Shown one piece after another: positions 46,475-47,564 of a stretch of DNA of 64,000 nucleotides (within the stretch, counting starts at the first letter, position 1; every line of letters starts with the position of its first letter). The translations under genes were made by a program, and so were the position numbers. The stretch is from Eledone cirrhosa (Eukaryota): NCBI GenBank assembly GCA_964016885.1, contig OZ024745.1:116126001-116190000 (forward strand), read 5' to 3'. The notes under the pieces are model-generated. The model saw only the letters and a program-made list of their open reading frames with translations. It made no database searches and had not been told where the DNA came from.

Positions 46475-46923
46475 TAAAATAAAGTTAAATAAAAGTCAAA
46501 TGATTAAAATTTAGCTTCGTTTATTACTGCTATATATATTTCAGTGACAGCCATCTTTGGCTGTGACCTCTTCAGGCAGTTTTAATTAGTATGGTATAGA
46601 CAAGTACATATGTTGTTTAGGTGTATGATATTGTCAATACTCTGATATGCCTAGTTCCTTGCTGGGTTGTTAATTCACTGGGGAACTGGAGTCATATGAG
46701 ATATGACTCCAGTTCCCCAGTGAATTAACAACCCAGCAAGGAACTAGGCATATCAGAGTATTGACAATATCATACACCTAAACAACATATGTACTTGTCT
46801 ATACCATACTAATTAAAACTGCCTGAAGAGGTCACAGCCAAAGATGGCTGTCACTGAAATATATATAGCAGTAATAAACGAAGCTAAATTTTAATCATTT
46901 GACTTTTATTTAACTTTATTTTA
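46475..46923. mobile_element. 449-bp palindrome (223-bp arms, GAG loop) of hammerhead-bearing family H2; third unit at 47068-47278
   Basis: Centre GTCATAT-GAG-ATATGAC at 46691-46707, with no arm mismatch seen. The left end abuts (TA)n. Confidence 0.9.
46818..46872 (+). ncRNA. Minimal type I hammerhead ribozyme motif (H2); mirror copy at 46526-46580 (-)
   Basis: Stem I ACTGC/GCAGT, CTGAAGA, stem II ACAGCCA/TGGCTGT plus outer pairs, GAAA, palindromic stem III ATATATAT, AUA triplet (predicted cut after 46867), AATAAA at 46873. Confidence 0.82.
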
Positions 46924-47174
46924 CACTACTCCGGAGTAACCAAACCAACCTGCGCACTTCGTCGAGTGCTCCAGCCTGCATACTGAGGTGTTGGTATACA
47001 ACCAACATAAACTCAAAATCTATATATATATATATATATATATATATATATATATATATATAGATTTAGTTCCCCAGTGAATTAACAACCCAACAAGGAA
47101 CTGGGCATATCAGAGTATTGACAATATCATACACCTAAACAACATATGTACTTGTCTATACCATACTAATTCAA

Positions 47175-47229
47175 ACTGCCTGAAGAGGTTACAGCCAAAG
47201 ATGGCTGTCACTGAAATATATATAGCAGT
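47175..47229 (+). ncRNA. Minimal type I hammerhead ribozyme motif (H2, third copy)
   Basis: ACTGC-CTGAAGA-GGTTACAGCCAAAGATGGCTGTCACT-GAAA-TATATA-TA-GCAGT-AATAAA. Confidence 0.8.
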
Positions 47230-47564
47230 AATAAACGAAGCTAAATTTTAATCATTTGACTTTATTTAACTTTATTTGATATATATATATATATATATAT
47301 ATATATATATATATATATATATATATATATATATATATATATATAGTTAGTTAGAGAAGCAAAAAATTGCTTATTGTGATCCAGTTCTTGGTTAAGAAAG
47401 CCAGTTTCATGGATGGTTTCAACGTACGGTTAGGGGTAACTCCACAAGTTTGTAAGAATTCCGTTCAATCTTGGAGTATAAAGTATAAAAGAGAAAACAC
47501 AGTCGTAAATACCTGGATAAAATCCTTCTCTTAATGCTTACCTGTGTTTTCTCTTTTATACCCC

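Follow-up and report, generated by a model that had tools for sequence, protein, structure and literature searches.

Truncated ends of a Penelope-like retrotransposon as the probable source of a hammerhead-bearing fold-back locus in Eledone cirrhosa

The locus at 46475-47277 likely represents two insertions, each of stump size, that derive from the 3' end (pseudo-LTR, pLTR) of a high-copy Penelope-like retrotransposon (PLE). This end bears the hammerhead, and the retrotransposon is probably of the (TA)n-targeting Neptune type. All positions refer to the window, the whole stretch of 64,000 nucleotides that was analysed. The element, termed family H2 here, is likely a new family within the known PLE class, not a new non-coding circular-RNA element.

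Layout of the locus

The locus is composed of the following features.

46276..46476, no strand: (TA)n tract of the left flank, likely the insertion target (sequence; TRF, with 46400-46476 within the range scanned)
46475..46697, minus strand: left arm, an inverted, 5'-truncated, tail-less copy of the element 3' end, its 3' end lying against (TA)n (self-alignment; end-point match in other copies)
46693..46705, no strand: fold-back junction at the short internal palindrome CATATG, with a 3-nt spacer at 46698-46700 (sequence; joint in contigs and reads)
46701..46923, plus strand: right arm, a direct, 5'-truncated, pLTR-like copy of the 3' end (self-alignment; contig and read comparison)
46873..46878, plus strand: AATAAA, its first letter directly past stem I, a putative and likely polyadenylation signal (sequence)
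46924..47020, plus strand: one-sided extension ("tail") of 97 nt that belongs to the family (sequence; copies ending at 47019)
47021..47062, no strand: (TA)21 between the tail and the third copy (TRF)
47068..47277, plus strand: third copy, tail-less, with the 5' truncation 10 nt further in and (TA)n at both sides (descriptor scan; alignment)
47279..47345, no strand: (TA)n tract of the right flank (TRF)

An earlier sequence-only reading had described a fold-back palindrome with a third copy 357 nt further on, and the alignments confirm it. The arms (46475-46697 and 46701-46923) are 223 nt long each and 100% complementary across a spacer of 3 nt. The third copy is 97.6% identical to them, with four substitutions and a 1-nt gap. 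Since the right arm is prolonged by 97 nt up to (TA)21, a microsatellite lies within the 357-nt spacing of the same-strand motifs. Tracts of (TA)6 or longer occur 108 times in the 64-kb window.

The final 25 nt of the tail contain 21 A or C residues. The tail is not clearly structured: its predicted fold has a z score of -1.8, with 15 of 300 shuffles as good, and common variants disrupt pairs.

Hammerhead motifs

Three motifs belong to the locus itself, and a fourth, related one lies elsewhere in the window.

46526..46580, minus strand: type I hammerhead motif (copy 1), with cleavage of this strand predicted after 46531 (descriptor scan, shuffles, folding)
46818..46872, plus strand: type I hammerhead motif, copy 2, predicted cut after 46867 (descriptor scan, folding)
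47175..47229, plus strand: type I hammerhead motif (copy 3), with cleavage predicted after 47224 (descriptor scan, shuffles, folding)
21979..22034, plus strand: diverged relative of the family H2 hammerhead, within a truncated insert of its own that lies between (TA)n tracts (descriptor scan, alignment)

The three type I motifs proposed from the letters alone were borne out. A strict descriptor, which demands a palindromic helix III and no fewer than 5 bp in stem I, was scanned against both strands of the whole window and returned exactly these three matches, against none in any of 200 dinucleotide shuffles. The same scan confirms the perfect 5-bp stem I and the palindromic helix III that had been claimed, and the AATAAA directly downstream was likewise seen, abutting stem I at 46873. 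Each motif comprises the 5-bp stem I, the core CUGAAGA, a 26-nt stem II region, GAAA and the palindromic helix III octamer; in copy 2, stem I is 46818-22/46868-72, the core 46823-29 and stem II 46830-55, with GAAA followed by the octamer at 46859-66. Pair 10.1-11.1 is G.U, not G-C, in all three locus copies. Stem II has 10 bp and carries a C.C mismatch, and the cleavage triplet is AUA. There is no extra nucleotide between 9 and 10.1, as the first G already pairs with 11.1, and the predicted folds have no distal stem I. The motif lies 51 and 148 nt ahead of the two 3' ends described below, which places the hammerhead in the 3' terminal repeat.

When the 69-nt motif of each copy is folded, stems I and II form with a z score of about -3.1, and none of 200 shuffles is as good. 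Helix III is predicted to be open in the monomers (pair probability 0.06-0.17), while the octamers of different copies are predicted to pair with each other (about 0.96); between helix III and the (TA)21 tract the model gives next to no pairing. The double-hammerhead fold of the two same-strand copies has a calculated energy of -105.7 kcal/mol against -94.0 for two monomers. This predicted gain of 11.7 kcal/mol supports the earlier proposal of PLE-type hammerheads able to work as dimers, and in these models the motifs look like dimer-dependent hammerheads of the PLE type.

Library models did not detect the motifs: none of the 84 window-wide Rfam matches at E<=1 is a hammerhead, nor is any of the three matches to 46790-46930 at E<=10. 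A metagenome scan returned no match to the exact motif. Its relaxed pattern of core and helix III, which serves as a negative control for the fold, gave 58 matches, none with both stems and none with a PLE protein or with similarity to family H2.

Within loop II there is an ATG in a strong start context, which begins a 16-codon frame (46844-46894) crossing the ribozyme. In the anole Poseidon element the ORF start is described as lying likewise within stem II (PMC11167929).

Copies in public sequencing runs

Of 24 runs listed, 16 contain part of 46698-47020 and eight contain at least half of its words; these eight come from four studies and carry five organism labels. Copies were compared in contigs or reads of three runs, X1, X4 and X22, of which X1 is possibly the window's own source sample and X22 belongs to another study; runs with small shares (X13-X16) do not enter the counts. 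Matches to the locus were found in 2,871 X1 contigs and 7,265 X22 reads, where depth is not to be equated with copy number. Family H2 is thus a high-copy, dispersed family that is present in other organisms too.

Upstream of 46701, 15 contigs of X1 and one of X4 run on with the same sequence. Because other copies continue there, the locus copy is 5'-truncated. Two 3' ends recur, each followed by TA: one at 46923 (eight X1 contigs and one X4 contig) and one at 47019 (14 X1 contigs and 342 X22 reads). Within the locus, the 46923 type of end is seen in the left arm and in the third copy, and the 47019 type in the right arm. Beyond the TA after 47019 the sequence is mixed, with an agreement of 0.5-0.67. 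The proposal of a retroelement that inserts at (TA)n is supported by these two ends.

The fold-back joint 46701/46705 was recovered in one X1 contig at a depth of 23.6 and in three X22 reads from two starts. It falls on the 6-bp palindrome CATATG and not at an AATT library site. The concern that the palindrome might be an assembly chimera is therefore removed by a contig and by independent raw reads of another study.

The arms have in common two alleles that occur at 0.04% and 0.13% of X1 depth, plus a third at about 5%; the third copy has none of the three. Since these rare alleles are in both arms and absent from the third copy, the arms would stem from one template and the third copy from another. 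The third copy is likely a separate insertion.

Two further joints, 46699/46838 and 46703/46818, join opposite strands in three reads each of X22 only and were not counted as evidence. Around 46818-46890 a diverged subfamily seems to have the same ribozyme in different flanks; its loose ends comprise 19 X1 contigs upstream of 46818 and 452 X22 reads with an insertion behind 46873. If both ends belong together, stem I would by eye reach 7 bp. A ribozyme-only mini-element, as might be read from a 4-fold X22 depth peak over the ribozyme and apparent molecule ends at 46723, 46811, 46814 and 46890, was rejected as a library artefact, since four of the five listed ends lie at AATT sites. X22 depth was left out of the evidence for the same reason.

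Conservation of the ribozyme

Among the 40 listed of 49 variable places, three lie within the 55-nt motif: two are in loop II and one is 46855 T>C. The latter, found at 39% of X1 depth and in 43% of X22 reads, creates the canonical pair G10.1-C11.1. Constrained positions are broken at none of 49 places, against 37 variable places of 270 outside the motif, with 40 of the 49 variants listed (Fisher p 0.0014); the p value is 0.063 when all motif positions are counted and would be 0.86 if all nine remaining variants lay in the motif. The relative at 21979-22034 is 79% identical. Its core and helix III are preserved, as is the C.C mismatch; it has G10.1-C11.1 and pairs 9 of 11 stem II positions, including one compensatory double change from C-G to U-A; its first stem I pair is broken. 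Since the common variants listed within the motif are confined to loop II or restore G10.1-C11.1, and since the relative shows a compensatory change, the hammerhead fold is real and likely maintained by selection, with cleavage as a prediction from the sequence.

Proposed origin of the locus

The layout of an inverted truncated copy, a direct copy, a one-sided tail, (TA)n and a palindromic helix III matches what four publications describe for PLEs, and this match is one of the grounds for our assignment. Five further fold-backs of the window with a one-sided extension, and a decayed PLE ORF with an inverted partner (both treated below), speak for it as well. According to Craig et al. 2021 (PMC8557442), PLE insertions are 5'-truncated, often with an adjoining inverted copy, and have a tail of 30-40 bp at one end; a (TA)n bias is given there for Naiad and Hydra and, by hypothesis via the linker, for Neptune. 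Arkhipova et al. 2013 (PMC3846280) report palindromes at the inverted junction, which they read as self-priming, and pLTRs that alone suffice for mobilisation in trans. In the account of Frangieh et al. 2024 (PMC11167929), reverse transcription is initiated internally: an AC-rich stem-loop of the RNA contains two start sites, the tail corresponds to what lies between them, and AT-rich DNA is cut on both strands. The A+C-rich end of the family H2 tail agrees with this. The same article describes a hammerhead that cuts only with protein and is dispensable for insertion in vitro, and cites the D. virilis endonuclease as requiring the tail for target recognition. Cervera and de la Pena 2014 (PMC4209133) describe dual minimal HHRs on opposite strands 100-700 bp apart, with low dimer activity, and palindromic helix III variants among PLE HHRs.

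Drawing on this published PLE biology, we infer the following insertion steps. The element endonuclease would nick a (TA)n tract, and reverse transcription would begin inside the RNA at either of two sites 97 nt apart. The CATATG palindrome would bring synthesis to a premature halt, and by folding back or switching template there the new strand would give rise to two identical arms, with the tail at just one of them. A further insertion without a tail, into the (TA)n just past the first tail, would account for the third copy. The ribozyme would be carried along in the pLTR and would work where pLTRs stand in tandem in the full-length parent, whereas its role in the present locus is probably that of a passenger.

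Parent element

One frame of the 30 letters visible upstream of 46701 reads Leu-Asn plus nine residues and runs to the TGA at 46704-46706. This in-frame TGA may be the end of the parent ORF. According to Craig et al. 2021, PLE endonucleases end at an [LIM]N motif. Among 150 Neptune-like proteins, 41 end in [LIM]N plus a short tail, and the upstream frame fits that endonuclease end. Some Neptunes have a similar 11-residue ending. The particular ending of Leu-Asn plus nine residues is matched by none of 284 collected proteins. Protein searches for the parent ORF recovered PLE relatives of another element of the window (30110-32618), not a family H2 ORF, and 118 coral proteins came without the endonuclease end.

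From these sequence features an autonomous Neptune parent appears likely. The assignment to Neptune follows from the combination of an HHR with a (TA)n target, together with the exclusion of Naiad and Hydra on the form of the ribozyme. The Naiad clade lacks a canonical HHR according to PMC8557442, whereas a complete motif is present here. For the Hydra clade, the HHRs given in File S2 of that paper have a helix III of 3-4 bp against the palindromic octamer here. None of six motifs from family H2 and the window was found in the Craig et al. 2021 supplement.

The element at 30110-32618 is a decayed PLE on the plus strand, with a reverse transcriptase, a CxxxCxxC linker and a partly deleted endonuclease. 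An inverted endonuclease fragment at 30609-30110, from a diverged copy, is its partner. The remnant is 52-54% identical to full-length proteins with RT and GIY-YIG domains, the named matches being from Octopus bimaculoides, Argonauta hians and Mytilus. Its end differs from that of family H2, and no ribozyme of the family H2 type adjoins it.

Alternative explanations

Family H2 could instead be a non-autonomous, non-coding PLE derivative, comparable to a SINE, whose ORF-less master uses the same insertion mechanism and borrows reverse transcriptase and endonuclease in trans. All three family H2 copies at the locus are free of coding sequence, no coding signal or bias was found in the tail, where common variants introduce stops in two of three frames, and the comparison with 284 proteins gave no matching end; pLTRs suffice, moreover, for mobilisation in trans (PMC3846280). 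We nevertheless consider such a derivative unlikely, because copies run upstream and the 30 letters visible there would make a plausible endonuclease C-terminus ending at 46704-46706. A palindrome of later date than the insertion, formed through fold-back repair or gene conversion from a single copy flanked by (TA)n, or one that is a chimera of reads or assembly, would account for the complete identity of the arms and the near-private alleles that they share, and tail-to-tail pairs around TA tracts do occur in the window. The recovery of the joint in contigs and in raw reads of another study speaks against it, however, as does the left arm, which stops at the family-wide 3' end. In addition, the arms of a fold-back at 43.7 kb differ at 10 of 258 positions, so that arms are not routinely homogenised. 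Such an origin is extremely improbable.

The sequence-only reading had suggested a dedicated element that is non-coding and has a unit of 357 nt, possibly circular. As a model this is a non-LTR retrozyme whose unit lies between the same-strand ribozymes, is released by a double hammerhead and is circularised. Retrozymes of this size are described from mussel and axolotl (PMC7229834), and 357 nt and 33% GC lie within the animal range given there. The double hammerhead is favoured over two monomers in the model, the predicted circle folds better than shuffles with the TA tract fixed (z -2.6, 0 of 100), and Li et al. 2026 (bioRxiv 10.64898/2026.07.22.740005) derive retrozymes from pLTRs on the basis of trees. 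The locus, on the other hand, holds only about 1.6 units, with (TA)21 in the spacing, and the third copy has another start, no tail, other alleles and 2.4% divergence. TRF, with parameters unlike those of Li et al., gives only TA arrays and no 357-nt period. Elsewhere no tandem form was seen: none of the seven joints listed leads from the 3' end back into the 5' part and none of the 17 listed of 287 loose-end rows lies at the cleavage site, which is a weak test for tandem arrays because TA tracts limit the spans of contigs and of 150-nt reads. In the model, the unconstrained fold (-112.0 kcal/mol) is inactive and lies 6.3 kcal/mol below the double hammerhead, and stem I has a probability of 0.002-0.003 in a long transcript. 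Only 55% of the predicted circle is paired, and its z score drops from -5.3 to -2.6 once the TA tract is fixed, so that half of it comes from a TA hairpin. Even among predicted dimers, one of nine cleaved in the report of Li et al. 2026. With copies extending upstream of 46701, a microsatellite in the spacing, a diverged tail-less third copy and no 357-nt array, the dedicated circular element found no support, and we regard it as very unlikely.

A related idea keeps the PLE origin and adds a retrozyme at its birth: the tail would attract the next insertion into the adjoining (TA)n, and a head-to-tail landing would build a double hammerhead that releases a circular 357-nt RNA. We hold this to be very unlikely. 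The further suggestion that the palindrome places a ribozyme on transcripts of either strand stands for the DNA. A transcript over both arms, however, is predicted to pair arm to arm (P 0.9997), which would hide the downstream ribozyme. Since a read-through transcript would form a 223-bp duplex burying the middle ribozyme, two-way processing is disfavoured, and in this model the palindrome more likely yields double-stranded RNA.

Other fold-backs in the window

Five further fold-backs of three other families also have a one-sided extension to (TA)n. In the window the fold-back tails measure 41-107 nt, against 30-40 published. The set of six fold-backs, family H2 included, was chosen by eye and is non-exhaustive. 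Three of the six have an extra copy of the same family within 1 kb, each over a TA tract and in all three cases on the tail side. One copy with greater divergence is located next to a tail-less side, at a distance of 1,267 nt. With n=3 and a chance of 1 in 8, a tail-side bias of extra copies is only a lead.

A second hammerhead family occupies 32744-33350, with fold-back arms that differ at 1 of 259 positions and a one-sided tail of 56 nt. Its type I motifs (33147-33191 on the plus strand and 33003-32959 on the minus strand) carry an additional G behind A9, and their helix III is not palindromic. A subfamily that is about 83% identical is found at 19989-21043; its right arm ends inside the ribozyme, the tail has 41 nt, and past the tail 715 nt of pure A/T are followed by a 99%-identical copy placed tail to tail. 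A third fold-back family (47564-47965, 34574-34747 and 49232-49345) has a one-sided 77-nt tail in two copies and no hammerhead in the remaining sequence. One extra copy (94%) faces its tail over a TA tract; the copy off the tail-less side is 80% identical. The fold-back at 43747-44421, mentioned above for its diverged arms, is older, has a tail of 107 nt and carries a core-like string CUGAUGA...GAAA without stem I in both arms. A high-copy repeat of roughly 185 bp, which may be the octopus tRNA-derived SINE family, occurs at 45934-46119 and in over ten other places.

Significance and comparison with known systems

As interpreted here, family H2 adds modestly to what is known, as an abundant family of hammerheads from a cephalopod. 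It provides material on the purpose of PLE ribozymes, with an unvarying core next to a G10.1 whose partner is U in about 60% and C in about 40% of the family, and on the origin of fold-backs and tails, with identical arms that share rare alleles, long family-specific tails and additional copies beside the tail. Should a circle be produced by the double hammerhead, the locus would give a direct view of the origin of retrozymes from PLE ends, for which Li et al. 2026 argue from trees; a retrozyme at birth, if true, would mean a one-step route from Penelope ends to retrozymes. Literature on hammerheads in the context of Penelope, octopus, cephalopods or retrozymes held no account of family H2 where it fell within our coverage, which leaves aside Repbase and most subscription journals; the supplements of Li et al. 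2026 may list relatives. Under the same coverage, the cephalopod elements on record were those that Craig et al. assign to Hydra and Naiad.

Animal non-LTR retrozymes, as described in PMC7229834 and by Li et al. 2026, resemble the locus in same-strand type I HHRs 330-390 nt apart, in low GC and in a proposed PLE ancestry. The family H2 locus differs from them by the absence of a tandem array, a microsatellite in the spacing and the fold-back and tail of a PLE, and it is known here from DNA alone. The Hydra-clade PLEs (Craig et al. 2021, Files S1-S2), among them the Octopus bimaculoides element Hydra-1_Obim, share with family H2 the (TA)n target and a type I HHR, which is some 100 nt away from their 3' end, and they are present in an octopus. 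Their helix III of 3-4 bp is non-palindromic, however, and the Hydra-1_Obim motif has a different sequence.

Insertions of EN+ PLEs (PMC8557442, PMC3846280, PMC11167929) are like family H2 in 5' truncation, an adjoining inverted copy, a junction palindrome and a tail at one end, as well as in a type I HHR near the 3' end and an AT-rich or (TA)n target. They differ in the published tail length of 30-40 nt, against 97 nt here, and the extra family H2 copy lies across a (TA)n tract instead of abutting. Compared with the PLE consensus published in PMC4209133, family H2 has G.U at 10.1-11.1 (C in 39-43% of family depth), has no extra base after A9 and carries a conserved C.C mismatch in its 10-bp stem II. 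Nevertheless, it shares a short stem I, a long stem II and a palindromic helix III that requires a dimer with the PLE hammerheads of Drosophila virilis, D. willistoni, Aedes, rotifer and shrimp (Cervera and de la Pena 2014, Fig. S3), and both an AU-rich helix III and an A at the cut site occur in that set as they do in family H2.
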